Shown: piece by piece, positions 28,594 through 47,948 of the stretch
Layout: each line of letters opens with the position of its first letter
Position numbering within the stretch: position 1 is the stretch's first letter
Assembly: GCA_934095865.1 (NCBI GenBank)
Contig: CAKOKU010000006.1
Location: forward strand, 175-64,174
Direction of reading: 5' to 3'
Length of the DNA: 64,000 nucleotides
DNA from: an uncultured Bacilli bacterium
Lineage (GTDB): Bacteria; Bacillota_I; Bacilli_A; RF39; UBA660
Program-made: the position numbers and the translations under genes
The notes under the pieces: model-generated
What the model was told of the DNA's origin: nothing
Seen by the model: only the letters and a program-made list of their open reading frames with translations
Databases searched by the model: none

Positions 28594-28607
28594 GTAGGTG
28601 AAGAATA

Positions 28608-29408
28608 GTGAAAGAATCTTATTGGGGTTACTGGTTAGTAATGCTTGGTATTTTGGTAATAGGCGTTATGCTTCTTATCAACAGTACTACTAACGGTACA
28701 ACCCATGATTATTATGAATTAAAAGAAACAACATCGGCTGCCGTTATAGATGCAGTAGACTACTCTTACTACCGTCTATATGGTGATTTGAAAATATCAA
28801 AAGAAAAATTTATAGAGAACTTCATCCGTAGATTTTCTGAGTCAGCAACTATGACTAAAGAATATAACGTATCATTTTATGATATTCATGAAGTTCCTCC
28901 TAAAGTAAGTGTTAAAATATCTACTGTTAGTAACGCTGTAAACGTTGCTAACAGTAGTAACTCTTTCGATTTAGTTAATAAAATAGATATTATATTAGTT
29001 GGAGGCTCAAAAGATAATAATAAAACACCAGGTAAAACTGAGCCAACAACTCCAGAAACATGCTATATCTTAAATACGACACAAACATTTATGAAGATTA
29101 TTAAGGAAATCTTAGTTGATGGTACTAGTACTTATGGTGTAGATACCGCATTAGTTCAAAGAATAAGACATGCTGGCTTTACTAATTTAAATTCATGGTC
29201 AAAAACTGATTGTAATATATCAAGTGATGATTGTGTAAGTAAATTTAATTCAGCATTAAACTTAGATTTCAGTGGTGCTTTACAACTTGCTGATACTAGA
29301 GAGCTTTTAATAACCAACGACCCAACTTATGTCAAGGATTCAAATGATGAAACTAGTGGCATCTTAGGTTATGCGTTAAATAAAGGCTATATAACCCTAA
29401 CTAAATAA
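28608..29408 (+). CDS. Single-pass membrane protein of the Tad-like cluster, function unknown
   Basis: GTG start after AGGTGA. The N-terminal hydrophobic helix WGYWLVMLGILVIGVMLLI is followed by a domain of about 230 aa. No prepilin cleavage motif. Confidence 0.55.
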   Translation: MKESYWGYWLVMLGILVIGVMLLINSTTNGTTHDYYELKETTSAAVIDAVDYSYYRLYGDLKISKEKFIENFIRRFSESATMTKEYNVSFYDIHEVPPKVSVKISTVSNAVNVANSSNSFDLVNKIDIILVGGSKDNNKTPGKTEPTTPETCYILNTTQTFMKIIKEILVDGTSTYGVDTALVQRIRHAGFTNLNSWSKTDCNISSDDCVSKFNSALNLDFSGALQLADTRELLITNDPTYVKDSNDETSGILGYALNKGYITLTK

Positions 29409-29427
29409 GAGTAGAAAGAGGATAAAA

Positions 29428-30249
29428 ATGGATAAAATTAAAGAAGAACTAAAAAAAGTTCTCGCTAATAAAAATACACTTACTATTATTATTGTAATTA
29501 TTGGTATTATTGGTTTATATGCAATTTATAACTGGCGTGTAAATCAAGCCGTAACAACAATAAGGGTACCATACGCAAAAAAAGAATTAACTAGTCGTAC
29601 TCAAATAACTAGTGATGCCATTGGTACCACAGAGCTACCAAAAAGAATAGCTCGCAATTTAGGAATTTTAACATCTACAAGTAACATAACTAATAATTAT
29701 GTAAAATATGGTGAAACAATTCCTGCTAATAGCTTCTTTTATAAAGATTATATTGTTTCCTTTGAAGAAGCTACTACTAATGAATTTAGTGATATCCCAG
29801 ATGGTTATACAGCATACAACCTAGCAGTTGATATAAACTCAACATACGGTAACTCAATATACACTGGCAATTACGTAGACCTTTATGTAAAAGCAACCAG
29901 TGCTAGTAGTAAAGTAATCTTTGGTCGCTTAATAAAAAGTATCAAAGTATTAGCCGTATTAGACTCATCAGGCAATGATGTCTTTGAATCATCAACTGAA
30001 GCTAGAACCCCAACTCAAATGTGGTTCGCTGTACCAGATGAACTATATACATTATTAAAGAAAACCGAATATATTGGTGGCATCAGCGTTATGCCAATTC
30101 CAAGAAATGCAAGTTATACAGCAACACCTAGTGATACAACTATTGACTCACAATATATTCAAAACTTTATCTTATCTAAATCAATAACAGTTAGTCAAAA
30201 TTTCAATAGTAATACCAATACGGGTACTGAAACAGAAAATCAAGAATAG
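29428..30249 (+). CDS. cpaB: CpaB/RcpC-like pilus assembly protein, paralogue 1
   Basis: TM helix, then a SAF-like segment IRVPYAKKELTSRTQITSDAI. DGYTAYNLAVDINSTYGNSIYTGNYVDLYV matches the recalled CpaB core (g.rAvsv.vd...G.i.PGD.VDv). Confidence 0.6.
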   Translation: MDKIKEELKKVLANKNTLTIIIVIIGIIGLYAIYNWRVNQAVTTIRVPYAKKELTSRTQITSDAIGTTELPKRIARNLGILTSTSNITNNYVKYGETIPANSFFYKDYIVSFEEATTNEFSDIPDGYTAYNLAVDINSTYGNSIYTGNYVDLYVKATSASSKVIFGRLIKSIKVLAVLDSSGNDVFESSTEARTPTQMWFAVPDELYTLLKKTEYIGGISVMPIPRNASYTATPSDTTIDSQYIQNFILSKSITVSQNFNSNTNTGTETENQE

Positions 30250-30266
30250 AAAGTGAGTTATAAAAG

Positions 30267-31040
30267 ATGAAAAACGCTCTTGCACCTTTAAAAAGGTTCA
30301 TTCAAAATAAAAATACTGTTACTATCCTTTGTATAGTAGCTGGTATCTTAACTTTAGTAATAGGGTATAACTACCGAGTTAATAAATCAATTGACTTGGT
30401 TTCTATTCCCTATGCTCTAAAGGAAATTCCAAGAAAAACCCAAATAACAAAAGATATGATAGGACACGTTAAAGTACCACGTTCCTTAATTAAAAATGCT
30501 AAAAATATCATAACGACAGACAAAGAATTAATAAATTATTATTCTAGTTATTCTACTGATATCCCAGCTAAAAGTTTATTTTATACTGACACAATCCTAA
30601 AAGAAGAACAAATGCCAGATTATGCTTTTACAAATATGCAAGATGGTTATACCGTATATTCTCTTAAAGTAAATAACAAATCAACGTATTCAAATCGTTT
30701 CCGTCCAGGTGATTATATTGACCTTTATATTGAAGCAAAAGATCAAAATCGTGTCATGATGGCAATCTTAGTTAAATCTATTAAAATTAAAGCCATTAAA
30801 GATTCAGCCGGAAATTCTATTCTAGAAAATACACTATCTGGTGGTACTCCAGCTGCACTTCTATTTGAAGTAGAAGATAAACTATTTGATTTACTTAAAA
30901 AAAGTGAATATGTTACTAATGTTGAAATAATTCCTGTACCAAGAAACTCTAACTATACTAAAGAAGAGGGTGCAACTACGGTCTCAACAGAAGAAATAAC
31001 TAACTATATTTATAATAAAACTGAAGTTATAACTAATTAG
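30267..31040 (+). CDS. cpaB: CpaB/RcpC-like pilus assembly protein, paralogue 2
   Basis: Same architecture and collinear with paralogue 1: VSIPYALKEIPRKTQITKDMI, DGYTVYSLKVNNKSTYSNRFRPGDYIDLYI, LLKKSEYV...PVPRNSNYT. Confidence 0.6.
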   Translation: MKNALAPLKRFIQNKNTVTILCIVAGILTLVIGYNYRVNKSIDLVSIPYALKEIPRKTQITKDMIGHVKVPRSLIKNAKNIITTDKELINYYSSYSTDIPAKSLFYTDTILKEEQMPDYAFTNMQDGYTVYSLKVNNKSTYSNRFRPGDYIDLYIEAKDQNRVMMAILVKSIKIKAIKDSAGNSILENTLSGGTPAALLFEVEDKLFDLLKKSEYVTNVEIIPVPRNSNYTKEEGATTVSTEEITNYIYNKTEVITN

Positions 31041-31051
31041 AAAGGATTAAT

Positions 31052-32455
31052 ATGAACGAGGCAATATTTGAGCAAATGGACTTTGGTCCGCTATCTGAAT
31101 TTCTAGCTGATGATGATATTACCGATATATCTTATTCTAATAATGGTCAAGTTTGGTTAAAAACCTTATCTAAAGGTGTTTATCAAGTAGAAAGACCTGA
31201 TATAAATAATACATTTATGGAAAAGTTAGCATTCCAATGTTCAAACGTCATGGGTAAAACATTTAATATGGCTCATCCCTTATTAGATGCTGAATCAGCC
31301 GAATTACGTATGAACTTCATTCATGAATCAATTGCTACTAATGGTATTGCCTGCTTAATCCGTAAAACCCCGGCTAAAATTCGTCTTAATAAACAAAAAT
31401 TATTAAATGAAGAATATATAACAGAAACCCTACACGATTTTTTAATGAATTGTGTAGCAGGTCACTGCAATATTATTGTTGCCGGTGAAACTGGTTCTGG
31501 TAAAACCGAGCTATTAAAATATTTAGCAAGTCATATCAAAGAAAATGAAAAAATTATTACTATTGAAGATACTTTAGAACTTCACTTAGATAGAATTTTC
31601 CCTCATCGTGATATTGTTGCTATGAAAACTAATAATATTTGTAGTTATACTGATGTTCTAGTAGCCTGTATGCGTCAAAACCCAATTTGGATTTTACTTT
31701 CCGAAGTTCGTTCTGGTGAGGCCGTTATGTCTGTACGTAATGCCATATCATCAGGCCACAATATCTTATCAACAATCCACGCTGATAAAGCAAGATCAAT
31801 CCCATTGCGTATGTATTCCTTAATGGAATCAAGTCAAGATGTTCAACAATTTCTAACAACAATTCATAGATATGTTCAAATAGGTATTTATGTTAAAGGT
31901 TATTTTAGTAAAAAATTTAATCGTTTTCAAAGAGAAATTATTGAAGTTTGTGAATTTTACGTTGATGAAAACAATCAACCATGTACTAATGAAATATATA
32001 AAAAATCATTAGATGGCCAATATGTATTAAAAAATCCAACTCAGCAGTTACTAGATTATTTAAGTATTCAAAATGTTATGTTAGAAAAAGATACCTTCCA
32101 TTTGGGAGATAAAGAAGAATATGATGGTAATGTTGAAGATGATTTAAAGAAAAGTCAGAGTAATGGCGAAGTAAGTAGTAATGTAAATACGGCACCGGTT
32201 GAAAGTGTTAATACACCTAGTCAAAGCAATCAACCATCAGAAACATTAAATATTCCAAATCAAAATCTTACTGCTTCTACTAACCAAAGTAATATTCCTA
32301 ATAATTTAAACAATCCTAACAATAATCAAAGTCCAAATAATACGCCAATCAATAATAATCCGTTACCAAATGGCGTACCAGTAAATAGTTTCTTTAGTAA
32401 TAATACTACACTAAATAACAATATAACTACTTCTAATAGTGAAGAAGTATTATAG
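31052..32455 (+). CDS. tadA: CpaF/TadA-type secretion ATPase with N/P/S-rich C-terminal tail
   Basis: Walker A GETGSGKTE (31484-31510), Asp box ITIEDTLEL, Walker B RQNPIWILLSEVR, His box LSTIHA. The size and the following TadB/TadC-like genes fit the Tad subfamily. Confidence 0.8.
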   Translation: MNEAIFEQMDFGPLSEFLADDDITDISYSNNGQVWLKTLSKGVYQVERPDINNTFMEKLAFQCSNVMGKTFNMAHPLLDAESAELRMNFIHESIATNGIACLIRKTPAKIRLNKQKLLNEEYITETLHDFLMNCVAGHCNIIVAGETGSGKTELLKYLASHIKENEKIITIEDTLELHLDRIFPHRDIVAMKTNNICSYTDVLVACMRQNPIWILLSEVRSGEAVMSVRNAISSGHNILSTIHADKARSIPLRMYSLMESSQDVQQFLTTIHRYVQIGIYVKGYFSKKFNRFQREIIEVCEFYVDENNQPCTNEIYKKSLDGQYVLKNPTQQLLDYLSIQNVMLEKDTFHLGDKEEYDGNVEDDLKKSQSNGEVSSNVNTAPVESVNTPSQSNQPSETLNIPNQNLTASTNQSNIPNNLNNPNNNQSPNNTPINNNPLPNGVPVNSFFSNNTTLNNNITTSNSEEVL

Positions 32456-32464
32456 GAGGATAAA

Positions 32465-33367
32465 ATGGAGTTAATAATTTTAATTGCACTTGCACTATTT
32501 GCCTTTTCCTACCGTAATAGTGCTAATGCCTCAATCGATGGAGCTTTCAAATTCATTCAAAATGGTGTAACCAACCTTTATGATAGATATGCTCCATATA
32601 GTTTTAAACAAGTAAGAGAAAAAACCAAAGAATTAGGTGAGGAATATACTGTAAGACAATATTTAAGTCAAGTTGCCTTGTTTGGCATCGTTGCTGGTGG
32701 CATCGCATATCTTTACTTTTATAATTTATTTATAACTATAATTTATGCAGCCATCGCCATTGCTTTTATTCCATATCTATCATATCTAAGAACTCAACGA
32801 ATTTATTCTGAATATATATTCGAGCAAATTCAAACTTATACTACTAACGTTATCATGGAATTTAATACGACTCAGAGTTTTGTTAAATCTCTAGAAGGTG
32901 TAGTTGAATCTGGTATCTTAGAAAAACCCGTTGTTGATGATGTTAAAACGATGATTAATATGGCTTATGCTAATGGTACTATTGACCAATCAATTGCTTA
33001 CTTTAATGAAAAATATCCATATTATATGGTCAAGAATATGCACCAATTATTTTATCAAATTACTAAGGAAGGTTCTAAAGACTCTGGTGAATCCCTAGAA
33101 AATATGTCATTAGACATCGATGCTTTAGTAGAAGGTGTTTATCGTGATAGAATGGATAGAGCTAACTTCCACAAAAAGTTCTTAACTTTCGGTATGGCCT
33201 TATTCTTATTAGCAGCCGTTATGCAATTCTTATTAGGTCGTGATTCATATATTAAACTACTAGAAATGTGGTATGTTAAACTAATCTTACATTTAATAAT
33301 CATAATAAACTGCTATTTCTTATTAACTGGTGAGAAATATTATAATGAAGATGTGGGGGTAGAGTAA
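32465..33367 (+). CDS. tadB: TadB-like platform protein (single T2SSF domain)
   Basis: N-terminal TM helices, a central cytoplasmic helical domain and C-terminal TM helices. It is about 300 aa and lies immediately after the ATPase gene. Confidence 0.6.
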   Translation: MELIILIALALFAFSYRNSANASIDGAFKFIQNGVTNLYDRYAPYSFKQVREKTKELGEEYTVRQYLSQVALFGIVAGGIAYLYFYNLFITIIYAAIAIAFIPYLSYLRTQRIYSEYIFEQIQTYTTNVIMEFNTTQSFVKSLEGVVESGILEKPVVDDVKTMINMAYANGTIDQSIAYFNEKYPYYMVKNMHQLFYQITKEGSKDSGESLENMSLDIDALVEGVYRDRMDRANFHKKFLTFGMALFLLAAVMQFLLGRDSYIKLLEMWYVKLILHLIIIINCYFLLTGEKYYNEDVGVE

Positions 33368-33368
33368 T

Positions 33369-34157
33369 ATGTATTTTGAAATTCTTGGCTTATCAGCCCT
33401 ATACTTATTTGTCTTAAATAAAACTAAAGTTATTGATGTCAAAAAATGTATAAATGATAACGTTGGCTATTTCCTACGTTTTAAAGAATCTGATTATGAT
33501 TTTCTAGTGCGTACTCGTTATGGTGAAGGCGTTGACCCCGATTATTTATTCGGTAAAAGAATTACTCAGGGACTAGTAGTAGGGCTATTAGTAATCTGCT
33601 TCTTCATTAATAAATTCAGTTATATTTATGTTATTTTGGCTATTGTTGCTGGTATTTTCATGTTTAAATCAAGTTATAACAGCTTGAAAAATTATTATAA
33701 AAACAATTTGCACACCATTGATGCCATGTTGCCACATTACTTAAAAGGCTTAGAAATCTTAATTCAACACTATACCGTACCAGTTGCCATTGCTAAAAGT
33801 GTCGACACGGCCCCAGAAATCTTTAAAAAAGGCTTATTAGAAATGATTGCCAAGATAAATTCTGGTGATAGTTCAATTGAACCTTATATGGACTTTGCTC
33901 GTACTTATCCAGTTCGTGATTCTATGCGTATGATGCGTTTACTATACCGTCTAGGTTTAGGGCGTCAAGATAGAAAACAAGAACAATTATTAAATTTCTC
34001 TCGTTCAATTTCAAGCTTACAACAAAAAGCGCGTGATACTAAATATAAAGAACGTCTAGATAAAATGGAAAATAAGACTATGAGTATGCTTATTTCTACT
34101 GGCTTAGGTGTTATGATATTACTAATTTTAGCAGTAATGCAAATGATGAATGGTTAG
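33369..34157 (+). CDS. tadC: TadC-like platform protein (single T2SSF domain)
   Basis: Starts 1 nt after the tadB-like stop. Topology is TM, helical domain (YMDFARTYPVRDSMRMMRLLYRLGLG), then a C-terminal TM. Confidence 0.6.
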   Translation: MYFEILGLSALYLFVLNKTKVIDVKKCINDNVGYFLRFKESDYDFLVRTRYGEGVDPDYLFGKRITQGLVVGLLVICFFINKFSYIYVILAIVAGIFMFKSSYNSLKNYYKNNLHTIDAMLPHYLKGLEILIQHYTVPVAIAKSVDTAPEIFKKGLLEMIAKINSGDSSIEPYMDFARTYPVRDSMRMMRLLYRLGLGRQDRKQEQLLNFSRSISSLQQKARDTKYKERLDKMENKTMSMLISTGLGVMILLILAVMQMMNG

Positions 34158-34264
34158 ACAATTAATTATTTTACAAATCCATTTCTTGAATAGGGGAATG
34201 GTTTTTTTATTTTTCAAATTTATCAATGATAATACAACAATATTACCAAAACTTAAAATTAATA

Positions 34265-34273
34265 TGCTATACT
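34265..34273 (+). promoter_or_regulatory. Extended -10 element (TGcTATACT) upstream of the pilin gene
   Basis: Lies in the only sizeable gap of the cluster (162 nt), after a weak hairpin and T-run at about 34181-34215. Confidence 0.4.
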
Positions 34274-34319
34274 AATAGTATCATAGATAATAATAAAAAC
34301 GAGATTTAAGAGGTTTAAT

Positions 34320-36059
34320 ATGAAAAGAAAAAAGGGATTTACAATACCAGAACTTCTAGCTGTAATTGTTATAATAGGAGTTCTAACTGTCATGTCAGTA
34401 GGTACCTACACATCGATTAGTAAAAGTGTAAAAGAAGCTGAATTAAAAGAAAAGATAGAATATTTAAAGTCAAAAGTAATGGAATATGCTAGTGACAATA
34501 ATATAGAAAGAGATACTATTACAGTTAGTACTTTAATTGATTTAGGTTACATCGAAATGGATCACCCTGAAAACGCCAAACAAGAAAAGATTGATAATCC
34601 TGTAACTGGTGGTTATTTAGATTGTACTAACTTTACTATTGTTAGAGATTTAGATGATTATAATATAACATATGACTTAGAAGGCAGCTGCTTAACTGCT
34701 GATGTAGAATCAAAATCAGGTGAAATAAAAACAAGTCTTTATGTTTTAACTAATAATGGCTTAAAATCTTTAGATGAATTTAAATTATCAGACAAAGATA
34801 TCATTATAGATAATAATAAGGAAAATAATGACAATAAAAATAATAACAGTGGCAGTAGTATAATTGGCGGCTTATTTGGTGGCCTACTAGAAGGGATTTT
34901 AGGCAATAATGCAAATTCAATTCTAGGTGGTATCTTTGGCGGTTTAAAAAATATTTTTAGTTGGTTATTTCCTAATGCTTTTGCAACTCCCGTAAATTCT
35001 ATATATGATATTCATCCTTGGGCGGGTAGTGATGTATACTTATTTGTTGATTTTAGTGATGTCAGTTTTAATATTAAAGATAATAGTGTAACTTATGACA
35101 TCGGTGGTTTAAGTACAAGTACGAAAGAAGGAAACATTTGTTCAAAATCTAATGTTAATGTAGATTGTGCCAATGTTATAAGAGTTGAATCCGTACTGTT
35201 GTTTAACAGCTTAGTTAGTGCTACCGTCAATACTGATTACGGTTATGTTACGAAAAAAGCTTTGGTTAGAATTGATAAAGAAAATCCTACCATAAAAATA
35301 GATTATGATCAAAGTTATACTAGTAATAGTGTTCCTGTTTATTTGACTGGTGAAGATGGAGCGGGAAGTGGAATCGCTGGTTATTACTTTGGTAAAAAAG
35401 CTAGTCCAACTATTGATGATTTTACTACAACAAGTACCTATCATGTTAACGAAAATGGTAAATATTATGCGGCGACAATTGATAACGTAGGGAATATGTC
35501 AGAAATAAAAACAATCAATATTAGTTCGATTGATAAAGATGCGCCAATTGGTTTTATAAATCCTAGTGGCCGTGATGATTGGTCAACCTCAGATTTTACT
35601 TTCAACTTTGGTTGCAGTAGTGATACAAAAGCCGGCTGTGCAAATAAGATTGTTTATTCAATTTACAATAATGATACTAGTTCTTATATTGTTCAAAATG
35701 TAACTGTTGATGAAGCCTCTACTTCTTACACTGTAACGACACCAAATAATACTAGTCTTTCATCTATTACCTTAACTTATACAATATATGATAATGTTGG
35801 AAACTCAAGTACCAAGGTAGAAACTATTCATACCAGAATTGATAAAGTAGACCATTCATCTAATAATAATTCTGGTGGCGGTAATCCAGGTCCAAATGAT
35901 GAAAATCATGCCTGTAAAGGCTGGGAAGGCTTGGCTTGTGTCTTAGCTGGAGCCGCTGCTGGTGGTTTAGGTGGTGCTCAATTAGGTGGCGGCATCGGTG
36001 CTGCGATTGGGGCTGCGGCCGGAGCTCTTGGCGGCTTACTATGTGTAATTTTCTGTTAA
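34320..36059 (+). CDS. Large modular type IV prepilin (class III signal peptide) with Ig-like modules and glycine-zipper segments
   Basis: N-terminus MKRKKG|FTIPELLAVIVIIGVLTVMSV has a short basic leader, Gly-1, Phe+1, Glu+5 and a hydrophobic helix. Boundaries IDKENPT, IDKDAPI and IDKVDHS suggest Ig-like modules. GxxxG-rich segments sit at about 34851-34975 and 35921-36056. Confidence 0.8.
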   Translation: MKRKKGFTIPELLAVIVIIGVLTVMSVGTYTSISKSVKEAELKEKIEYLKSKVMEYASDNNIERDTITVSTLIDLGYIEMDHPENAKQEKIDNPVTGGYLDCTNFTIVRDLDDYNITYDLEGSCLTADVESKSGEIKTSLYVLTNNGLKSLDEFKLSDKDIIIDNNKENNDNKNNNSGSSIIGGLFGGLLEGILGNNANSILGGIFGGLKNIFSWLFPNAFATPVNSIYDIHPWAGSDVYLFVDFSDVSFNIKDNSVTYDIGGLSTSTKEGNICSKSNVNVDCANVIRVESVLLFNSLVSATVNTDYGYVTKKALVRIDKENPTIKIDYDQSYTSNSVPVYLTGEDGAGSGIAGYYFGKKASPTIDDFTTTSTYHVNENGKYYAATIDNVGNMSEIKTINISSIDKDAPIGFINPSGRDDWSTSDFTFNFGCSSDTKAGCANKIVYSIYNNDTSSYIVQNVTVDEASTSYTVTTPNNTSLSSITLTYTIYDNVGNSSTKVETIHTRIDKVDHSSNNNSGGGNPGPNDENHACKGWEGLACVLAGAAAGGLGGAQLGGGIGAAIGAAAGALGGLLCVIFC

Positions 36060-36075
36060 AAAGGATGGATTAAAA

Positions 36076-37392
36076 ATGAATAATGAAGAAATAAAGAAAA
36101 AACTAAGTAAAAAGCAAATGTTATTTATCATAATTGCCGCTATAATTGTAATTGTCGGTATTATCTTTCTAATTATTAAGATTACGGATAAGACTGTGTA
36201 TTATAAAAATGTCATAAATACTTCTTTTAATAAAATAACTACTAGTATTAATGAATTAGATAAAATAACGGGAAATAACACTTCTTTTTCTGATTCTATT
36301 ATCGTAAATGGTGATATACAAGATAATACTAGTAAAGTAGGGATAGAATTAAAGACTAATCTTAAAGATAAAATTCTTCGAGGAAAAATTAATTACAATA
36401 CATATGATTTAAACTATATCTATCAAGACAATAAATCATATATAAGTTCTGATAGTATATTTAATAATACCTACCAGATTGATGGTAAACTAGGCAGTAT
36501 AGATTTAGATGGTATCTTAAGCAACATAACCATTGAAAGCAGCGCTGATACTGCTGAATTAATAAATACTATAAATAGTCTAAAAGCTATAATCACATCT
36601 TCTTTAGAAAACAAATATATCTCCAAGAAAACAACTAAGACAATAATAGATAAAACCGAAGAAAGTGTTACTAGATATTCTTATACTTTAAACAAAGAAT
36701 CATTAAAAAAGTTCTTAGATAAATTAAATAAAAATAATAATTTGAAGAAAAGAATTATTAACTTAGTCAACACCATTGCTAAAGATGAAGTATTAACAGA
36801 AAGTAATTTTAGAAGTGAGCTTGAAAATAAAATAATCAATGGTACTTTTAATATCTATACCCAGGGTAGCAAAGTTAGAAAAGTAAGTATTTATTTAGTT
36901 GATTTTCTTAATGTTGATTTTACCTCTAATAACGGTTATGATAGGGTAGAATTTACTAATGAAAAGAAATCTAACAATATAATTATTAATTACAATACTA
37001 ATACTAAAGAATATACCATATCTTTATTTCAAAAATCTAGCAAGCGTTTTGATATTATTTTTATGATGGATAATGATATAAATGCTAGTTACAGTGTATA
37101 TACAAATAATGATAAAATAACGGGAACTATTACCGTAACTGATGTTATGAATATTAAAAATCGTAAAATAAAAGCTACAATTAATTATAATAATAAAACT
37201 TTTACAATTAGCTGTACTATAAATAAGAATGATTCAGTATCTAAAATGGATGTTAGTAATGCTATAACCAATGGTACTCCTAGCGAAGAAGAACAGTTGA
37301 AATTTAAAAATGCAATTAGTGAATTTACTAATAGTTCATTATTTAAGGATTTATCTTCTTTAGTTTTAAATTTAATAGGCAATAATAATTAA
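36076..37392 (+). CDS. Single-pass membrane protein, N/I/K/T-rich ectodomain, function unknown
   Basis: RBS AAAGGA, TM helix MLFIIIAAIIVIVGIIFLII, no recognised motif. Confidence 0.5.
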   Translation: MNNEEIKKKLSKKQMLFIIIAAIIVIVGIIFLIIKITDKTVYYKNVINTSFNKITTSINELDKITGNNTSFSDSIIVNGDIQDNTSKVGIELKTNLKDKILRGKINYNTYDLNYIYQDNKSYISSDSIFNNTYQIDGKLGSIDLDGILSNITIESSADTAELINTINSLKAIITSSLENKYISKKTTKTIIDKTEESVTRYSYTLNKESLKKFLDKLNKNNNLKKRIINLVNTIAKDEVLTESNFRSELENKIINGTFNIYTQGSKVRKVSIYLVDFLNVDFTSNNGYDRVEFTNEKKSNNIIINYNTNTKEYTISLFQKSSKRFDIIFMMDNDINASYSVYTNNDKITGTITVTDVMNIKNRKIKATINYNNKTFTISCTINKNDSVSKMDVSNAITNGTPSEEEQLKFKNAISEFTNSSLFKDLSSLVLNLIGNNN

Positions 37393-37434: not shown

Positions 37435-39468
37435 TTAATTAGTTTCAACTATAAATGGATCATTAGAAGTACCAATGCCACTAGTTATCTTAACATCAGA
37501 CTTCAAATTGATAACTGGGCGGGCACCATAGCTGTTGTTAACCCACGTGTAGTTAAGCCAGCCGTAGCTATACTGAAACCACTCATGAGCGTGGCCGTAC
37601 CAAGCGCTGAAATTAGAAGGCGACATTGTCCAGTAATGATTCGTAGAGTATGCCCAACTTAATTTATTTAAGTGTTTAACATCCATTCCGGCAAATACCA
37701 ACTCATCATACGTTATTAGACCAACTGGATAAGTTAAAGCTTGATTGCCATCTACTTTTCTTGTTTCTCCATCACTCTTAGCAACTGTATACATATCTCT
37801 ATCTGTGTTGGCACAGTTGAATGTTGCTGTATCACTTGCATATCTTCCATATGGAGCAAATCTTGTATCTTTATCTGTTTGAATTCCGTTGCCACCACTA
37901 TTACTATATAGACTACGGTCTCCACAGAAGCCTACGGCAGTTGAAATATAACTTGAATATCCTTTATCTGCTATATTTGTCTTGTACCATGAATCTACGG
38001 CTGTTTTGATTGTTGAATTATTTGTATTAGCGTGTACTTCATCAAATGTTTCTGTATCGGCATCACCATACATATAACCAACATATGTTGGGTCATTATA
38101 TTTACTATTGAATTGATAATTTTTAGTATTTATTGATTGAGCTGTGCCAGTAGCATTGGCTTTGGAACCATTATAGATAAGTCTTATAGAGCCATCGCCA
38201 TTAATACGAACTATCTGCCAATAATAACCGGCAAATAAAACATTATTATTCTTTACATTACCTCTGTAATAATAGGTTGTACCATAATCATCTGTTCCAG
38301 CGTATAAACCTTTATCAGATTTATCACTCTCTAATTCAGTTTCTGTTAAGGTATTAGCAGTTAAAGTATAAGTATTACTTGCATACTCAACACCATTCCA
38401 CTTTGTTTTTGTACTTGTTGTTATGGCACCAGTTATTTCATAAACAGTTATATCCCCACTGTTAGTTGACGTATACAATTTTTTAGTAGCAGTATTATAC
38501 CCAATACTTTCTGTTGAATAATAGTAATGTGTATCTCCTCCGAAAGTTAACGTAGAAGGATCAACATATTGCATATTACTTAATACATATCTACCAGTTT
38601 CACTATTGAATGTTTTTGTTGTATAAACACGCATCTTCGTATCATTTACTGTCAAATTACTAGTGGCGTCATCAGTTTTTATTGCAGATTCCGCTATTTT
38701 TACAACAGTTCTTGTTTGACCAGTCGTACCAGTTTTTTCTAACCATTTAATTACTGGAGCTGTATTAGTTACTTTAATACCACTATCAGTTGTTGTTATA
38801 TTAGCACTTTGTTTTGCCTTGATTTTTTCAATTGCAATCTCTGGTGTTGTTTGATATTCATTAGCCAAAATAGCATCATGTAAGGTGTTATATCCAGAAT
38901 CAACAGGTGAATAACTGCTAGGTTCTGAAGTTACAACAATCTTTGTTTTAAAGATTTTATTCATGGCAGCCGTATCATTAATAGTAACACTTTCATCTAT
39001 CCAAAAAGACACATTATAATCAATCGAATCCCCAGCACCTAAATATCCAGTAACTAAAGTCCTAGCTTCTGTACTAGTAGATAAATTTTTGTTAGAATCT
39101 TCCTCAAATTCACTTAATAATTTAATATCTTCATTATTAACTCTAACAGCAATATATTTACTATTCATAGTAGTACCTTCAAGCATTTCTAAATTAACAT
39201 AATATTTAGCAAAAATACTACAAGTATTAGTAATAGTAAAATTATATGGCTTTAATTTCTTACCATCTTCATCACTAATTGGATAGGCATTTTCTAAGGT
39301 AAAAGTATTGGCTTCATTAGAAATTGAAACATCAAAGCAACCGGATAATGCTTTATTATTATTATCACTTATTTTAACAAAGCGCCAATAAGCATAAGAA
39401 GAACCAATGATAGCCACCAGTATTAATAAAACGCCACTACCAATTAACCACATTTTTTTGTTTTTCAT
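37435..39468 (-). CDS. Secreted or surface protein (677 aa) with a SipW-type-like signal, TasA-like N-domain and conserved C-terminal ...RPVINL domain
   Basis: Likely start ATG 39468 (MKNKKMWLIGSG) after AAAGGGA. The signal ends ...IIGSSYAYWRF, resembling the TasA/CalY class. The C-terminal blocks YYYRGNVKNNNVLFAGYYWQIVRINGDGSIRLI, HYWTMSP and GARPVINL are shared with the ORF at 46644..47948. Confidence 0.7.
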   Translation of the reverse strand: MKNKKMWLIGSGVLLILVAIIGSSYAYWRFVKISDNNNKALSGCFDVSISNEANTFTLENAYPISDEDGKKLKPYNFTITNTCSIFAKYYVNLEMLEGTTMNSKYIAVRVNNEDIKLLSEFEEDSNKNLSTSTEARTLVTGYLGAGDSIDYNVSFWIDESVTINDTAAMNKIFKTKIVVTSEPSSYSPVDSGYNTLHDAILANEYQTTPEIAIEKIKAKQSANITTTDSGIKVTNTAPVIKWLEKTGTTGQTRTVVKIAESAIKTDDATSNLTVNDTKMRVYTTKTFNSETGRYVLSNMQYVDPSTLTFGGDTHYYYSTESIGYNTATKKLYTSTNSGDITVYEITGAITTSTKTKWNGVEYASNTYTLTANTLTETELESDKSDKGLYAGTDDYGTTYYYRGNVKNNNVLFAGYYWQIVRINGDGSIRLIYNGSKANATGTAQSINTKNYQFNSKYNDPTYVGYMYGDADTETFDEVHANTNNSTIKTAVDSWYKTNIADKGYSSYISTAVGFCGDRSLYSNSGGNGIQTDKDTRFAPYGRYASDTATFNCANTDRDMYTVAKSDGETRKVDGNQALTYPVGLITYDELVFAGMDVKHLNKLSWAYSTNHYWTMSPSNFSAWYGHAHEWFQYSYGWLNYTWVNNSYGARPVINLKSDVKITSGIGTSNDPFIVETN

Positions 39469-39541
39469 AATAATCCCTTTCATATTTATTATTCCATAAA
39501 TTAAGAAATCTATGCTTAATATTTGTTTTCTTAAAGTGTAC

Positions 39542-39568
39542 TTTTCGTAGAGTTGCATACTCTATGAA
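39542..39568. repeat. Left inverted repeat (IRL) of the candidate invertible element
   Basis: TTTTCGTAGAGTTGCATACTCTATGAA. Its reverse complement occurs at 39807-39833 with one mismatch. Confidence 0.9.
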
Positions 39569-39596
39569 ATTATCTGATTTTGCTTAATAAAATCCT

Positions 39597-39626
39597 TATT
39601 TGACTAAAATCTTGACTATAAATTTT
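39597..39626 (+). repeat. Direct repeat 1 inside the switch core
   Basis: TATTTGACTAAAATCTTGACTATAAATTTT matches 39688-39717 at 25/30 positions. It contains two TTGAC motifs. Confidence 0.8.
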
Positions 39627-39687
39627 AATTTGAAAAAATATTACAAACTCCAGAAAACTAAGGTGAATACTGACTATATTTAGTTTT

Positions 39688-39717
39688 TATTTGACCATGA
39701 ATTTGACTATAAATTTT
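39688..39717 (+). repeat. Direct repeat 2 inside the switch core
   Basis: TATTTGACCATGAATTTGACTATAAATTTT starts 91 bp after repeat 1. Confidence 0.8.
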
Positions 39718-39738
39718 TAAAATAAAGTTATTAAAATA

Positions 39739-39768
39739 CTAACAATAATGCTTATTTTATGGTAAAAT
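39739..39768 (+). promoter_or_regulatory. Promoter-like element inside the switch core, currently pointing towards hrcA
   Basis: CTAACA-N18-TGgTAAAAT, an extended -10. Confidence 0.35.
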
Positions 39769-39806
39769 TATATTAGAAATTAAGAATAGATGCACGTAAT
39801 TACGTA

Positions 39807-39833
39807 TTCATAGAGTATGCAACTCTATGAAAA
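39807..39833. repeat. Right inverted repeat (IRR) of the candidate invertible element
   Basis: TTCATAGAGTATGCAACTCTATGAAAA is the reverse complement of IRL at 26/27 positions. Confidence 0.9.
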
Positions 39834-39948
39834 AAATTAAAGTAATAGTTTACCCTTATTAAAAAGATTTATACATAATAATTAGAAATTTACCATTAAA
39901 AAGTAAAAATTCTTAGAAATAAAACTAGAATCAAAAAAATTTATAAAA

Positions 39949-39976
39949 TTAGCACTCATATATTGACAAGTGCTAA
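39949..39976. promoter_or_regulatory. CIRCE-like operator 1 (HrcA binding site)
   Basis: TTAGCACT-N12-AGTGCTAA has perfect 8-bp arms with a spacer 1 nt longer than canonical CIRCE. It overlaps the -35 of the hrcA promoter. Confidence 0.65.
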
Positions 39977-39991
39977 CATATAAATTATAAT
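39963..39991 (+). promoter_or_regulatory. Consensus sigma-A promoter of the hrcA operon
   Basis: TTGACA-N17-TATAAT, perfect hexamers. Confidence 0.8.
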
Positions 39992-39995
39992 GTAT

Positions 39996-40022
39996 TTAGC
40001 ATTTTGAGATTGGAAGTGCTAA
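39996..40022. promoter_or_regulatory. CIRCE-like operator 2
   Basis: TTAGCATTT-N9-AAGTGCTAA has canonical 9-N9-9 spacing with 3 arm mismatches against TTAGCACTC-N9-GAGTGCTAA. Confidence 0.65.
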
Positions 40023-40048
40023 ATATAAATAAAAGAGGTGATACTATT

Positions 40049-41056
40049 TTGAGTGACAGACAACAATTACTATTAAAAGAAATAGTTGAAAACTACATAT
40101 CACACGCAAAACCTGTCGGTAGTAAATCGCTGTGTAAGAAATTTAAATGTTCATCAGCAACGATTAGAAACGAGATGGCGTATTTAGAAGAATTAGGATA
40201 TATTGAAAAAAACCACATCTCCAGTGGTCGTGTACCATCAGAGAAGGGTTATAAATATTATGTAGAAAACCTAATGCGCCCAAAAGAATTAACTGGTGAA
40301 GATATGCTAAAATTACAAACAATCTTTCAAAATCAGAATTTAGTTGTATCTGATGCCGTTAACAAGTGTGTTGATATTATTAGTGAAATAACCAATTATA
40401 CCTCAGTAATATTAGGTAGCAGCTCTAAAGATAATGCCTTGCAACAAATAAACATTATTCCCTTAGCGGATAATAAAATAGTTGCACTGGTATGTACAGA
40501 TAAAGGCATAGTTGAAAATAAACAATTTGTCCTATCAGCTGATACCGACATAACAGAAGTAGTAAAAACCTGTGAAATAATAAATAAAATGTTAGTAGGT
40601 ACCCCAATTGATGAAGTATCTACTAGATTAGAATTTGAAATCAAACCAATTCTTGCTAAAAAGTTAGCGCAATATGAACAAGTATACAACATATTCTATG
40701 ATGCATTTAGTAACTTTGCCAATAATACCGCAAATATTCACTTTAGTGGCAAATCAAACTTATTTAATCAGCCAGAATATGACAATACCGAAAGTCTAAA
40801 AAGAATAGCTAATAAATTAGAAGATAAAGATTTGGTTAAAAATATATACTCTAATGAATCAGGCATTAAAGTATATATAGGTGATGAAAATGAATTTGAT
40901 AAAGATGTAACAATTATTAAAACTAAATATCACCGAAATGGCGAAGAAGGCACTATTGCCGTAGTCGGACCTAAAAGAATGGAATATGACAAAGTAGTAG
41001 GCTTACTTCAATATATAAGTGAAAATATAAATGATAATGAGGAAAATGATGACTGA
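40049..41056 (+). CDS. hrcA: Heat-inducible transcription repressor HrcA
   Basis: Likely TTG start at 40049 after AAGAGGTGA, giving (M)SDRQQLLLKEIVENYISHAKPVGSKSL. The winged-helix N-terminus and position before grpE-dnaK fit HrcA. The ORF track start at 40004 lies inside CIRCE 2. Confidence 0.9.
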   Translation: MSDRQQLLLKEIVENYISHAKPVGSKSLCKKFKCSSATIRNEMAYLEELGYIEKNHISSGRVPSEKGYKYYVENLMRPKELTGEDMLKLQTIFQNQNLVVSDAVNKCVDIISEITNYTSVILGSSSKDNALQQINIIPLADNKIVALVCTDKGIVENKQFVLSADTDITEVVKTCEIINKMLVGTPIDEVSTRLEFEIKPILAKKLAQYEQVYNIFYDAFSNFANNTANIHFSGKSNLFNQPEYDNTESLKRIANKLEDKDLVKNIYSNESGIKVYIGDENEFDKDVTIIKTKYHRNGEEGTIAVVGPKRMEYDKVVGLLQYISENINDNEENDD

Positions 41057-43522: not shown

Positions 43523-45328
43523 ATGGAAAGAAGTCAAATAGACGAAAAAGATACTTGGGATTTAACAAAATTATTTAAGAATCAAGAAGAGTATGAAACT
43601 TCTTATAAAGAAGTAGAAAACTTACTACAACAACTAATCGCTTGTAAAGGTCATATTTTAGATTCGGCCCAAACATTGTATGATTATTTAAGTATAAGTA
43701 CTAGTTTAAGTTTGCTTCTTGATAGACTTGCTGCTTATTCCTATTTTAATTTTTATCAAGACACAACATCAAAACTAGGCCAAGAATTAAAAGAACGCAT
43801 TGAGTCTCTCGGCAGTAAAATTACGGAAGCAACTAGTTTTACCAGAACCGAGTTATTAAGCAAACCATACGACGTAGTAAAAAAATATATTAAAGAAGAT
43901 CAAAGATTAAAAGACTATGCTTTTTACTTAGAAGAAGAGTTTAGACAAAAAGAACACACTCTATCGAAAACGGAAGAAGATATCATTGCTAAGTCCCTTA
44001 GTGCTCTTGGTAATTGTAGTGATGCTTTTCAAAGCTTAGATGATGCTGATGTTGATTTTAAATCAGTAAAAAAAGAAGGTCAAAAAGTAGCATTAAATCA
44101 CAGTAATTATTCTACTTTGATTGCGGATAAAGATAGAAGCATTCGTGCTGAAACCTTCAAAAATTACTATGCATTTTACGAAAAACATAAAAATACCTTA
44201 GCAAGTCTATATAAAGGCCAAGTTAAAGAAGATAACTATTTAGCTAAAGTTCATAAATTTTCATCAGCTGTGGAAGCTAGCTTGTTTGATGATGATATTT
44301 CCATAGACGTCTATGATTCTTTAATTAAAACGGTTCATGAAAACTTAGAACCTCTATATTCTTATTTAGATTTTCGTCGTCAATTTTTAGGCCTAGATGA
44401 ATTACATATGTATGATATTCATGCCGAACTGTGTGAGACCAAACTTCCAGAATATACTTTTGAAGAAGCTAAAGATACAATTTTAAAGGCTCTTGCTCCT
44501 TTAGGCGAAAAATATCTTAAAGATATATCAAAAAGTTTTACTGATCGTTGGATAGATAAATATCCATCCCGTGGTAAACGAAGTGGGGCTTTTGAATGGG
44601 GATGCTATGGCATTAGTCCTTATGTTTGCGTAAATTTTGAAGGCGATTATACTTCTGTATCTACCGTAATTCATGAATTAGGTCATGCTATGCACTCGTT
44701 CTATTCTGATGCAAATCAAAGTTATGTTAATAGCCATTACCCAATTGTTTTAGCTGAGATTGCCTCAACTGTCAATGAAGTTTTATTAAATGAATACATG
44801 ATAAAAAATGCTAAGACGAACACAGAGAAGCTATTCTATATCACTAAATTTCTTGATGAATTTAGAGCTACTGTTTACCGTCAAACCCAATTTGCTGAAT
44901 TTGAATATTTAACTCATAAGATGGATAATGACTGTGAAGCTCTAACCAGTGATTCCTTATATAATGTCTATTACAGTTTAAACAAATTATATTATGGACC
45001 TAATGTTATAAGTGATAAAGAAATCGGCTATGAATGGTCAAGAATCCCTCATTTTTATACACCATTCTATGTTTACAAATATGCCACTGGTTTTAGTTGC
45101 GCTATTAAAATAGCTAATGATATTTTAAATGGTAAAGAGAAGGCTTTAGGAAATTATTTACAATTTTTAAGTAGTGGTGGCTCTGATTATCCATTAAACA
45201 TTCTAAAGAAATGTGGTATTGACTTAACTACTGGTGAAGTAGTAAAAGATGCAATTAATATGTTTGCATCAAGATTAGACTTAGCTATAAATATTAGAAA
45301 GGAAATGATTGAAGATGGCAAAGAATAA
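43523..45328 (+). CDS. pepF: Oligoendopeptidase F (M3B)
   Basis: HELGHAMH zinc motif with a downstream EIAS Glu, and the typical length of about 600 aa. Confidence 0.85.
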
Positions 45329-46643: not shown

Positions 46644-47948
46644 ATGAAGGGAAAATTCGGAAAAATTTGTTTAGTAGCTATTTTAACAATAATAGTTATT
46701 ACGAGTTTTTTCGCCTCCTATGCTTATCAAAATCAAACTAAAGAACCAGAAAATAAAAATGCTTCTCTTGTTTTAGCCGATGAAAACTTTAGTATTAACT
46801 ATAAAGATGGAAACTACTTTGAAGTTAATCAGTTAGCACATGACGAAACAATTATTAAACACTTAACAATAACCAATGTGCTAGATGCGCCTAACTATAT
46901 AAGTATTGCTCTTATGGATATCAACAAAAAAAGTGATAATATAAGTGTTAAACTACTAGATGTAGCTGGTAATGTTATTTATGAAGATACGCTCGGAAAC
47001 ATGGATACAGAACTTTTAAAAAATAAAGAGATAGCCCCAAGACAAACCCTTACCTTTGATATAGTTATAACTAATCAAGACGAAGATTTATTAACCGGCT
47101 TTAGTGCTAATATTATGGCGTATAAAAGTATAAACCTAAAAGAAGATAAAACTCTTAAAGATGTTATCCTAAGAGATAATGAGATTCAAAATATGGATAG
47201 TCATGAACTAGCAATTGATTATAGTACTAATGGACTTTTTACGGTTCTAGATGACAATGGGACTAACTATATTTTTAGAGGTAACGTCAGTAACAATTAC
47301 ATAGAATTAAATGGTATTTTATTTCGAATCTTAAGAATAAATAGTGATAATTCAGTAAGATTAATCACTGATAGTAGCATTCTAGAAAGCGCTTATATTA
47401 GTAAAATTAGTTATCAAAACTACGAACAAAATGTTCTTCTTAGTGCCAGTATTTTACCCGAAAAATTGCAAAGTTGGTATAATTCTAATTTACTAAGTCT
47501 TGATAATTTTATTGTTAACAGCACCTTTTGTAGCGAAAACGCCTTCTATTTAGAAAATAATGATGGTCGTTTCTTTAATGCTTATCAAAGAATTGTTAAC
47601 TCTATTACTCCAACTCTTAATTGCACGGGAACAGCTGAAAACGCCAAAATCGGAATTATAACTGCTGATGAAGCTCTTTTAGCAGGTGCAAACTTAAATG
47701 GTGATAACCTAGATTATTTTCTTTATAATCCAGAGGAAACTAAAGGCTTCTTCACATCTACTGGTAGTAAAGTAATCTATAACTATAATGTTGTAGACAA
47801 TTTTGCCGTAACTAATACAGGAAAATTGGATAGTGAAGCTAAAGTAACCACTTCTCTAGGAATAAGACCCGTAATTTCTTTAGATAAAAATGTTACTATA
47901 ACAGGTTTAGGTACAAATGCTAATCCTTATAAAATTAATAAACAATAG
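46644..47948 (+). CDS. Secreted protein (434 aa), shorter paralogue of the 677-aa surface protein
   Basis: The signal-like N-terminus ends FFASYAYQNQ. Shared blocks are NYIFRGNVSNNYIELNGILFRILRINSDNSVRLI, LQSWYNSNL, IGIITADEALLAG and GIRPVISLDKNVTITGLGTNANPY. Confidence 0.7.
   Translation: MKGKFGKICLVAILTIIVITSFFASYAYQNQTKEPENKNASLVLADENFSINYKDGNYFEVNQLAHDETIIKHLTITNVLDAPNYISIALMDINKKSDNISVKLLDVAGNVIYEDTLGNMDTELLKNKEIAPRQTLTFDIVITNQDEDLLTGFSANIMAYKSINLKEDKTLKDVILRDNEIQNMDSHELAIDYSTNGLFTVLDDNGTNYIFRGNVSNNYIELNGILFRILRINSDNSVRLITDSSILESAYISKISYQNYEQNVLLSASILPEKLQSWYNSNLLSLDNFIVNSTFCSENAFYLENNDGRFFNAYQRIVNSITPTLNCTGTAENAKIGIITADEALLAGANLNGDNLDYFLYNPEETKGFFTSTGSKVIYNYNVVDNFAVTNTGKLDSEAKVTTSLGIRPVISLDKNVTITGLGTNANPYKINKQ

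Follow-up and report, generated by a model that had tools for sequence, protein, structure and literature searches.

How does a gene for a putative surface protein come to lie behind a pair of long inverted repeats, with a promoter between the repeats that points away from it? This question is raised by a 292-bp element (positions 39542-39833) in a 64,000-nt stretch of contig CAKOKU010000006.1 from an uncultured Bacilli bacterium (hereafter the window, G+C ~29%), which lies between a gene encoding a 677-aa protein and the heat-shock genes hrcA-grpE-dnaK. The original prediction, made from the letters of the window, proposed that the segment between the repeats flips and thereby switches the 677-aa gene ON and OFF. 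Here, we find that the element is one copy of a larger family in related genomes, whose members consist of two lox-like sites around an outward promoter and occur in both orientations, and we consider it likely that the element is an invertible promoter cassette (inverton). This reading is supported by comparative evidence from the family rather than by direct evidence at the window locus, and the points for and against it are weighed below.

The arms of the element are two inverted lox-like sites

The element is bounded by two arms of 27 nt each, 39542-39568 (TTTTCGTAGAGTTGCATACTCTATGAA) and 39807-39833 (TTCATAGAGTATGCAACTCTATGAAAA), which are complementary at 26 of 27 positions (96%) and lie 238 nt apart, exactly as the original prediction had described them. 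There, the arms were taken as plain inverted repeats, and the palindromic structure within each arm was missed. Each arm alone is a near-perfect palindrome with a 10-11-bp stem and a 5-nt centre, with single-strand fold z-scores of −5.7 and −8.7 for the two arms. The generic site formula consists of palindromic half-sites TTTCATAGAG and CTCTATGAAA around an asymmetric 7-nt spacer. In the gene-proximal site (39542..39569), the outer half-site TTTTCGTAGAG (39542-39552) is followed by the spacer TTGCATA (39553-39559) and the inner half-site CTCTATGAAA (39560-39569), and in the distal site (39805..39833), the inner half-site TATTCATAGAG is followed by the spacer TATGCAA (39816-39822) and the outer half-site CTCTATGAAAA (39823-39833). 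The distal spacer is the exact reverse complement of the proximal TTGCATA (7/7 positions), which is itself asymmetric and not self-complementary. Since each arm is palindromic with an asymmetric centre, the two "inverted repeats" read as two complete lox-like sites in inverted orientation, and, judged by sequence, they are built like the core sites of tyrosine recombinases (loxP, FRT, the lambda att core). The 21-mer TAGAGTTGCATACTCTATGAA is present exactly twice in the window, once per strand, and was found in 0 of 100 dinucleotide-preserving shuffles with 3 mismatches tolerated.

A family of elements with shared half-sites and locus-specific spacers

Further copies of the 21-mer, which the original prediction had suggested looking for, were found at 14 loci by an exact scan of a collection holding one genome per species, and a scan of the same set with the pattern TTTCATAGAG-N7-CTCTATGAAA matched at least 118 tiles. 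Among the matches listed, nearly all lay in ~12 related metagenome-assembled genomes (MAGs), which are labelled "uncultured Bacilli" (Hadza samples), "Mycoplasma sp. CAG:956" and "Tenericutes UMGS735". These ~12 MAGs contain at least 274 sites, which form at least 116 pairs. In 113 of these pairs, the spacers are exact reverse complements of each other and belong to 36 types. With 84 further elements from a metagenome scan, the family grows to at least 199; promoter and position counts given below refer to the first set of 115 elements, and the full set of 199 includes the metagenomes. The partner spacers match perfectly in 191 of the 199 elements and fall into 42 types, whereas partners shuffled as a control matched 8.6 times on average and 18 times at most. 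The two sites of a pair are spaced 252-255 or 262-268 nt apart, and the half-sites are conserved at 90% or more over 114 aligned elements. In one MAG, at least 21 spacer types are spread over at least 29 elements, and in another, at least 14 types over at least 20.

The eight elements with mismatched spacers (L117:157-443, L165:1228, L175:4974, L024:6158, L081:1559, L229:2789, L241:14 and L255:2367) could be switches that no longer flip, or could have arisen by recombination between different elements. The spacers of L117 are identical in direct orientation, which would favour excision over inversion, and L165 and L175 carry the same hybrid spacer pair, TATCTAA / TTTGCAA.

The same site type is also found in MAGs of Clostridia and Lachnospiraceae, where it bounds segments of 220-1466 bp (L031:3907-5395, L067:5126-6343, L093:6654-7247, L042:4251-5393 and L060:4025-4267), and the recombinase-site system therefore extends beyond the Bacilli lineage. 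A 571-bp Lachnospiraceae element contains TTGAC repeat pairs together with an outward TTGACA-17-TATCAT promoter. Single sites adjoin polysaccharide-synthesis genes, namely a glycosyltransferase gene (L020) and a GDP-mannose dehydratase gene (L030).

The cores of family members occur in both orientations between the sites

Both orientations of the core occur naturally, at orthologous loci and at loci of the same species, with the crossover inside the sites. The orthologous loci L056 and L085, from different species-level MAGs, have flanks of 94% and 94% identity and cores that align (93%) only as the reverse complement, and the same holds for the orthologues L001 and L086 (flanks 91% and 98%, core 92%). 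Within one species, L209 and L237 share flanks of 99.6% and 98.4% identity, and their cores are 100.0% identical over 241 nt, again only as the reverse complement. In the flipped pairs, the polarity of the spacers relative to the flanks is unchanged and the asymmetric outer half-site remains with its flank, which fits strand exchange inside the sites and not breakpoints outside them. Across same-locus comparisons in which both flanks were at least 97% identical, 3 of 17 were flipped.

The spacers of L209:3422 and L237:1215 differ by one base (TATCTAA/TTAGATA vs TATCCAA/TTGGATA), and the change is present in both sites, indicating that both ends of a switch were altered together while the two copies had hardly diverged. 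Judged from coordinates, true contig ends are no more than 250 nt away from at least 20 unpaired sites, and no more than 5 nt away from 8 of these, a pattern weakened by the general fragmentation of these MAGs. In MAG CAKOMH (K77 assembly), the end of L021 and the start of L001 share exactly 77 identical bases spanning a site, which is suggestive of a de Bruijn graph branch at the switch, as if both orientations were present in the sample.

The core carries a conserved outward promoter

The invertible core (39570..39804, + strand) is non-coding, with no open reading frame (ORF) of 30 aa or more, in agreement with the original prediction, and its architecture follows the family consensus by alignment. 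The aligned cores share one order of elements, in which the motif CTAGGTAAATACTGG, two tandem TTTGACyAyAAT repeat pairs and an A-rich tract lead to an extended −10 with the consensus TATGgTATATT, followed by a conserved initial transcribed region and then the second site. In the window, the core alignments place a copy of the family motif, CTAAGGTGAATACTGAC, at 39658..39674 (+), and the two tandem TTGACyA pairs form direct repeats at 39596..39626 (+; TTATTTGACTAAAATCTTGACTATAAATTTT) and 39687..39717 (+; TTATTTGACCATGAATTTGACTATAAATTTT), the second 91 nt downstream of the first. The TTTGAC motifs are conserved at 90% or more across the family alignment, and the TTGACyA repeats may be bound by the recombinase as arm-type sites or may serve as activator sites.

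The predicted promoter itself was found where the original prediction had placed it, at 39739..39768 (+), with a CTAACA −35-like hexamer, an 18-nt spacer, a TG dinucleotide at 39760-39761 and a TAAAAT −10 at 39763-39768, preceded by an A-rich tract. A TGnTAnnnT motif facing outward ~47 nt from one site is present in 115 of the 115 first-set elements and is the single feature that all of them share. In the window assembly, the promoter is directed at hrcA, away from the 677-aa gene.

Most switches stand before one gene family

Directly upstream of paralogues of the 677-aa gene lie 103 of the 115 elements, with the promoter facing away from the gene (OFF) in 93 and towards it (ON) in 10. In the window, the gene occupies 37435..39468 (−) and is separated from the proximal site by a 73-nt leader (39469..39541, −) that contains the ribosome-binding site AAAGGGA and no convincing promoter. 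The start codon at 39468 and the lack of anything beyond weak promoter-like hexamers in the leader had both been called correctly before; the distance of the start from the arm, given there as 74 nt, is counted here as a leader of 73 nt. A longer ORF of 707 aa opens with MQLYEKY inside the left arm, and the likely true start is the ATG at 39468 (MKNKK...), 73 nt past the arm with AAAGGGA ahead of it, so that the N-terminal extension MQLYEK... had rightly been dismissed as spurious. The corresponding 7-codon mini-ORF (MQLYEKN*) is likewise present at the right arm (ATGCAACTCTATGAAAAAAATTAA).

Across 86 leaders of the family, the proximal site lies 13-45 nt from the start codon in 35 and 76-99 nt away in most of the remainder. 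An extended −10 in the direction of the gene is found in 3 of the 86 leaders and in 4 on the opposite strand, which puts the motif count at background. With leaders that are short or free of the motif, the family genes are expected to depend on a promoter in or beyond the element, and the controlled genes appear to have no promoter of their own.

The 677-aa protein has no Pfam, NCBIfam or PDB sequence match. It has more than 2293 homologues, one of which is labelled "hypothetical protein" in one source. Its AlphaFold model (predicted local distance difference test score, pLDDT, 55) comprises a helix at residues 4-31, which is predicted to be a hydrophobic transmembrane anchor, followed by β strands that make the N-terminal half β-rich in the model; the C-terminal 275 residues score below 50 and are unreliable, and Foldseek searches with the model returned meaningless matches with template-modelling (TM) scores of ~0.1. 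Surface exposure and an antigenic role would be in keeping with such a protein.

Other genes of the window touch the same family or its surroundings. A second paralogue (46644-47948, +), shorter at 434 aa and with 27% identity across the C-terminal domain, lacks a switch and is preceded by a terminator after dnaJ and then by an ordinary TTGATT-17-TATACT promoter. At lower coordinates than the 677-aa gene, a one-strand run of ORFs (21634-37392, +) includes a 2319-aa ORF, a 579-aa protein that bears a prepilin N-methylation motif, a 438-aa protein for which no match was found and several others. Homologues of the 579-aa and 438-aa genes sit on the OFF side of an element at locus L005. In a bulk Pfam scan, one ORF of the window matches the T2SSE ATPase.

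A tyrosine recombinase of the Int type is the candidate flipping enzyme

A 355-aa tyrosine recombinase (PF00589, 7e-24; PF14659, 4e-13) adjoins elements in two MAGs, and its catalytic R, H-x-x-R and Y residues are readable in the motifs IRIGE, HALRHT and LYVH. The gene is present as a single copy in each of 8 MAGs, within ~200 bp of an element in 5 of them. It is preceded by a TGcTATAAT promoter of its own, and a terminator lies upstream. In MAGs of Clostridia and Lachnospiraceae, homologues with 32-39% identity adjoin the same site type, and at L031 the recombinase gene lies within the 1466-bp segment bounded by two sites with matching spacers. No such sites were found within 10 kb of two more distant homologues (74% and 51% identity), a result that is uninformative either way.

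The structural model of the recombinase (pLDDT 87.5) contains an N-terminal domain of three strands plus a helix (residues 9-57), a linker, and core-binding and catalytic domains. Its top structural match in Foldseek is the Tn1549 integrase (Int), with TM scores of 0.62-0.71, and an alignment is also obtained with full-length lambda Int. For the N-terminal 60 residues the matches are weak, both being to the DNA-binding domain of Tn916 Int (PF02920, E 0.077; 1b69, E 0.3), and among the NCBIfam models none reaches its cut-off, with FimB/E-type invertases far below. Given the architecture of the model and its match to Tn1549 Int, we propose a heterobivalent Int-type invertase, in which the N-terminal domain may bind arm-type sites. 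This single-copy, Tn1549/lambda-Int-like tyrosine recombinase is our candidate for the flipping enzyme. Its linkage to the site type in related genomes and its absence from the window agree with the action in trans that the original prediction had called for.

The OFF orientation faces hrcA in the window and unrelated genes, or none, elsewhere

On the right, the element is followed by hrcA-grpE-dnaK (HrcA domain matched). Outside the switch, hrcA has a perfect TTGACA-17-TATAAT promoter of its own (39963-39991, +; 12/12) with two operators of the CIRCE (controlling inverted repeat of chaperone expression) type, the first (39949-39976, +) overlapping the promoter and the second (39996-40022, +) following it. 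The stretch from the distal site to hrcA contains no predicted terminator, so that read-through from the outward promoter into hrcA is possible, and such transcription is probably incidental. The original prediction had regarded this read-through as an unusual side effect of the switch; its possibility stands, and it is not special to the window locus, as the OFF side faces many unrelated genes elsewhere. Nothing is positioned on the OFF side at 71 of 115 loci, and a divergent gene lies 70-290 nt away at 22 other loci. Among the products of the OFF-side genes are a membrane serpin, a pilus ATPase, a pseudopilin, GerA, a hydrolase and the recombinase, whose gene is separated from the element by a terminator.

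Some of these arrangements recur. A divergent gene for a membrane-anchored serpin lies on the OFF side at three orthologous loci (L010:4821-6470, L043:2764-4434 and L082:3622-5280), and a divergent T2SSE pilus ATPase gene at two (L027:1384-3054 and L095:3426-5003), both kinds 100-190 nt from the element; they could represent reciprocal control.

In the neighbouring operon (region 40004-40051), the start assigned to hrcA by gene callers, GTG 40016 (346 aa), lies inside the second CIRCE operator, and the real start looks like TTG 40049, which is preceded by AAAGAGGTGA and opens the protein MSDRQQLLLKEIV.... A gene for an M3-family oligoendopeptidase F (43523-45328, +) lies between dnaK and dnaJ and breaks the order hrcA-grpE-dnaK-dnaJ.

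Orientation of the copy in the window

Several observations weigh against an active cassette at the window locus. A flipped copy was found in 0 of 10 independent assemblies of the locus (identical HrcA, at least 9 samples), and the orthologue L126, whose protein is 86% identical to the 677-aa protein, has the same orientation as the window. The proximal outer half-site (TTTTCGTAGAG) has a G where ~99% of sites have an A, a variant that also occurs in other family members. A homologue of the candidate recombinase was not found in the window by tblastn, as the original prediction had noted for recombinases at large, and none is tied to the genome of the window; no recombinase family is among the 25 listed of the 47 Pfam families that the bulk scan of window ORFs returned. 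The window without such a homologue is in line with an enzyme acting in trans.

Assemblies report the majority orientation only, and the family-wide ON fraction is ~10%, so that ten OFF copies out of ten are expected with a probability of ~0.35; the uniform orientation is therefore unremarkable and weak evidence either way. An exact look-up of the 677-aa protein returned only the contig of the window, and the window-specific flank pattern had no match in the metagenome collection. Strains with diverged cores (core scores 220-238) retain both sites and their matched spacers, and the window copy probably still flips. A flipped copy of the locus would show the junction GTACTTTTCGTAGAGTTGCATACTCTATGAATACGTAATTACG and its partner junction CAGATAATTTCATAGAGTATGCAACTCTATGAAAAAAATTAAAG. 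The proposed ON/OFF phase variation is supported for the family by its flipped pairs and its promoter in the core, and the window locus itself has been seen in one orientation in all ten assemblies.

Alternative explanations for the element

The same observations could be taken to mean that the element descends from an inverton and is now frozen towards hrcA, leaving the 677-aa gene silent or expressed by other means. One orientation in ten of ten assemblies and in the 86%-identical orthologue, a half-site that departs from the consensus (TCGTAGAG), and the 8 of 199 members with mismatched spacers, some of which may be locked and would show that locking does occur, all speak for such a relic. 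However, the two spacers of the window copy still match in full and, apart from that departure, the four half-sites are preserved in strains with diverged cores, the TCGTAGAG variant is found again in several elements with matched spacers, and ~90% of the family is OFF anyway, making a locked copy unlikely in our view. We are slightly more sceptical of a bidirectional toggle, in which selection would maintain alternation between the 677-aa gene and extra, CIRCE-independent transcription of hrcA-grpE-dnaK. The missing terminator before hrcA and the 22 other loci with a divergent OFF-side gene, some kept across species (the serpin gene at 3 loci, the T2SSE ATPase gene at 2), would be expected under a toggle, but the OFF-side genes are unrelated in function (serpin, pilus ATPase, GerA, hydrolase, recombinase), 71 of 115 loci have nothing positioned there, the recombinase gene is shielded by a terminator, and hrcA is served by a 12/12 promoter of its own with two CIRCE operators.

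Two further readings do without recombination between the sites, and both are very improbable. With its size of 292 bp, its terminal inverted repeats, its multiple copies in each genome and the contig breaks at the repeats, the element resembles a miniature inverted-repeat transposable element (MITE) or some other mobile repeat that has come to sit before the gene by chance. Such a repeat would be at odds with the lack of a target-site duplication, with copies that are 70-90% identical rather than near-identical and whose divergence tracks that of their flanks, with a location almost always 13-100 nt upstream of one gene family, and with a repeat centre that varies between copies and matches within each copy; moreover, the interior alone flips while the repeats hold their polarity. 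The missing target-site duplication, the linkage to one gene family and the interior-only flipping contradict a mobile repeat. The palindromic arms might instead be paired operators for a dimeric repressor that loops the DNA, or the two strands of a long-range RNA or DNA hairpin, in which case covariation of the arms would also keep them paired with each other. Neither form predicts an exact inversion of the interior between near-identical loci or explains the linkage to a tyrosine recombinase, the centre of an operator, which is not contacted, need not be the reverse complement of its partner's, and there is no Rfam match within 39200-40200. Inversion of the interior with unchanged spacer polarity contradicts an operator pair and a hairpin alike.

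A model for independent switching of paralogous genes

Taking these observations together, we propose that the element works as an invertible promoter cassette in the following way. Two lox-like sites (TTTCATAGAG / CTCTATGAAA half-sites around a 7-nt crossover spacer) bracket the 238-nt core in inverted orientation and would be synapsed by a tyrosine recombinase of the lambda-Int / Tn916-Tn1549-Int type whose gene lies at another place in the genome, and strand exchange inside the identical spacers would flip the core. In the present orientation, the promoter would read towards hrcA and leave the 677-aa gene OFF, and after a flip it would read through the proximal site and the 73-nt leader into the 677-aa gene (ON). 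As the half-sites are shared and the spacers differ, each switch should recombine only with its own partner, which would let dozens of paralogous genes switch independently.

From this, a wider proposal can be drawn, to which we give an even chance of being right: a genome-wide, "address-coded" phase variation in which one domesticated Int-type recombinase acts on shared arms and private 5-7-nt spacers, so that the switches flip independently without scrambling the chromosome, with concerted evolution of the two spacers of a switch, the TTGAC pairs as arm-type sites, and the OFF orientation as a second output at a subset of loci, possibly including hrcA.

For the abundant, uncultured human-gut group concerned (relatives of "Mycoplasma sp. 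CAG:956" and UMGS735, among them the Hadza MAGs), the elements suggest a surface that is probably varied by such switches, with at least 29 ON/OFF switches in one small genome, placed before members of an unannotated protein family of thousands. The sequence rule, TTTCATAGAG-N7-CTCTATGAAA in inverted pairs 252-268 bp apart, can be used to annotate the switches in MAGs, to explain contig breaks and to support PhaseFinder-style quantification in existing metagenomes. Shared arms with private spacers also offer a natural test bed for spacer insulation and for paired spacer change, and the cassette with its recombinase could become a multiplexable genetic switch.

Comparison with known invertible switches

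Invertible promoter switches as such are known; what is new here is a family of promoter invertons with lox-like sites, locus-specific spacers and an Int-type recombinase in an uncultured gut lineage. Literature searches returned no description of the system or of its site sequence and no paper that links RF39/Tenericutes-type gut bacteria with invertible promoters, and the lineage of these elements is not mentioned in the text on DeepInverton.

The closest parallel in logic is the mpl system of Mycoplasma penetrans, in which flipping is carried out by tyrosine recombinases encoded elsewhere in the genome and the inverted repeats are reportedly ~12 bp long. As summarised in a review, the mpl genes (P35 family) are many surface-protein genes, each with an invertible promoter (PMC10502178, citing Horino 2003). 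The resemblance lies in a wall-less-type, small-genome organism related to the Bacilli, dozens of paralogues, a small cassette for each and independent ON/OFF switching. In contrast to the P35 lipoproteins, the 677-aa protein lacks a lipobox (its first Cys is residue 44) and matches no family, and the present sites, 27-nt palindromes of lox-like build, carry locus-specific spacers and enclose a core of ~240 nt with conserved TTGAC pairs. The system works like mpl and is a member of neither mpl nor the RecV regulon.

In Clostridioides difficile, only ~7 switches are known, cwpV, flgB and cmrRST among them, and several act after transcription initiation. One tyrosine recombinase, RecV, acts in trans on several intergenic segments of ~150-300 bp before surface and motility genes (PMC5903667, PMC5386303), and the inverted repeats of one switch mostly bear no relation to those of another (PMC5903667). 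Compared by description, the elements resemble these switches in size, in logic and in their low-GC gut Firmicute host, which upholds the likeness to RecV-type switches drawn in the original prediction as far as size and logic go; the arms depart from it, being conserved lox-like sites with locus-specific spacers. Unlike in C. difficile, the half-sites are shared, only the spacer differs, and at least 29 switches are found per genome.

Many cassettes with a shared repeat consensus, most of them OFF, are also typical of the capsular promoters of Bacteroides fragilis, which are flipped by a master enzyme, the serine recombinase Mpi, and the present family shares these traits. The linked enzyme here is a tyrosine recombinase, in contrast to the serine invertons of the Mpi/Hin/Gin type, and the site anatomy, being lox-like, differs from Hin-like sites with their 2-bp crossover. 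A promoter cassette of ~300 bp is shared with fimS of Escherichia coli, where FimB and FimE, short two-domain tyrosine recombinases, are encoded beside a single switch. Lambda Int and Tn916-Tn1549 Int, to which the candidate is likened by its structural match to Tn1549 Int, its arm-binding-like N-terminal domain and a 7-nt overlap resembling that of lambda, integrate and excise mobile elements, whereas the candidate appears to have been domesticated as a chromosomal invertase with dozens of targets.

The sites themselves are built like those of Cre/loxP and FLP/FRT, in which inverted binding arms flank a short asymmetric spacer that sets the orientation, and in which mismatched spacers, such as those of lox511 and lox2272, do not cross-react. 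The arms of 10-11 bp and the spacer of 5-7 nt differ from the 13-bp arms and 8-bp spacer of loxP, and the candidate recombinase, unlike Cre, is modelled as a three-domain enzyme of the Int type. Unlike in the engineered lox511 and lox2272 sites, spacer heterospecificity would here be natural and genome-wide, and the private-spacer design may thus be viewed as the natural counterpart of engineered heterospecific lox sites.

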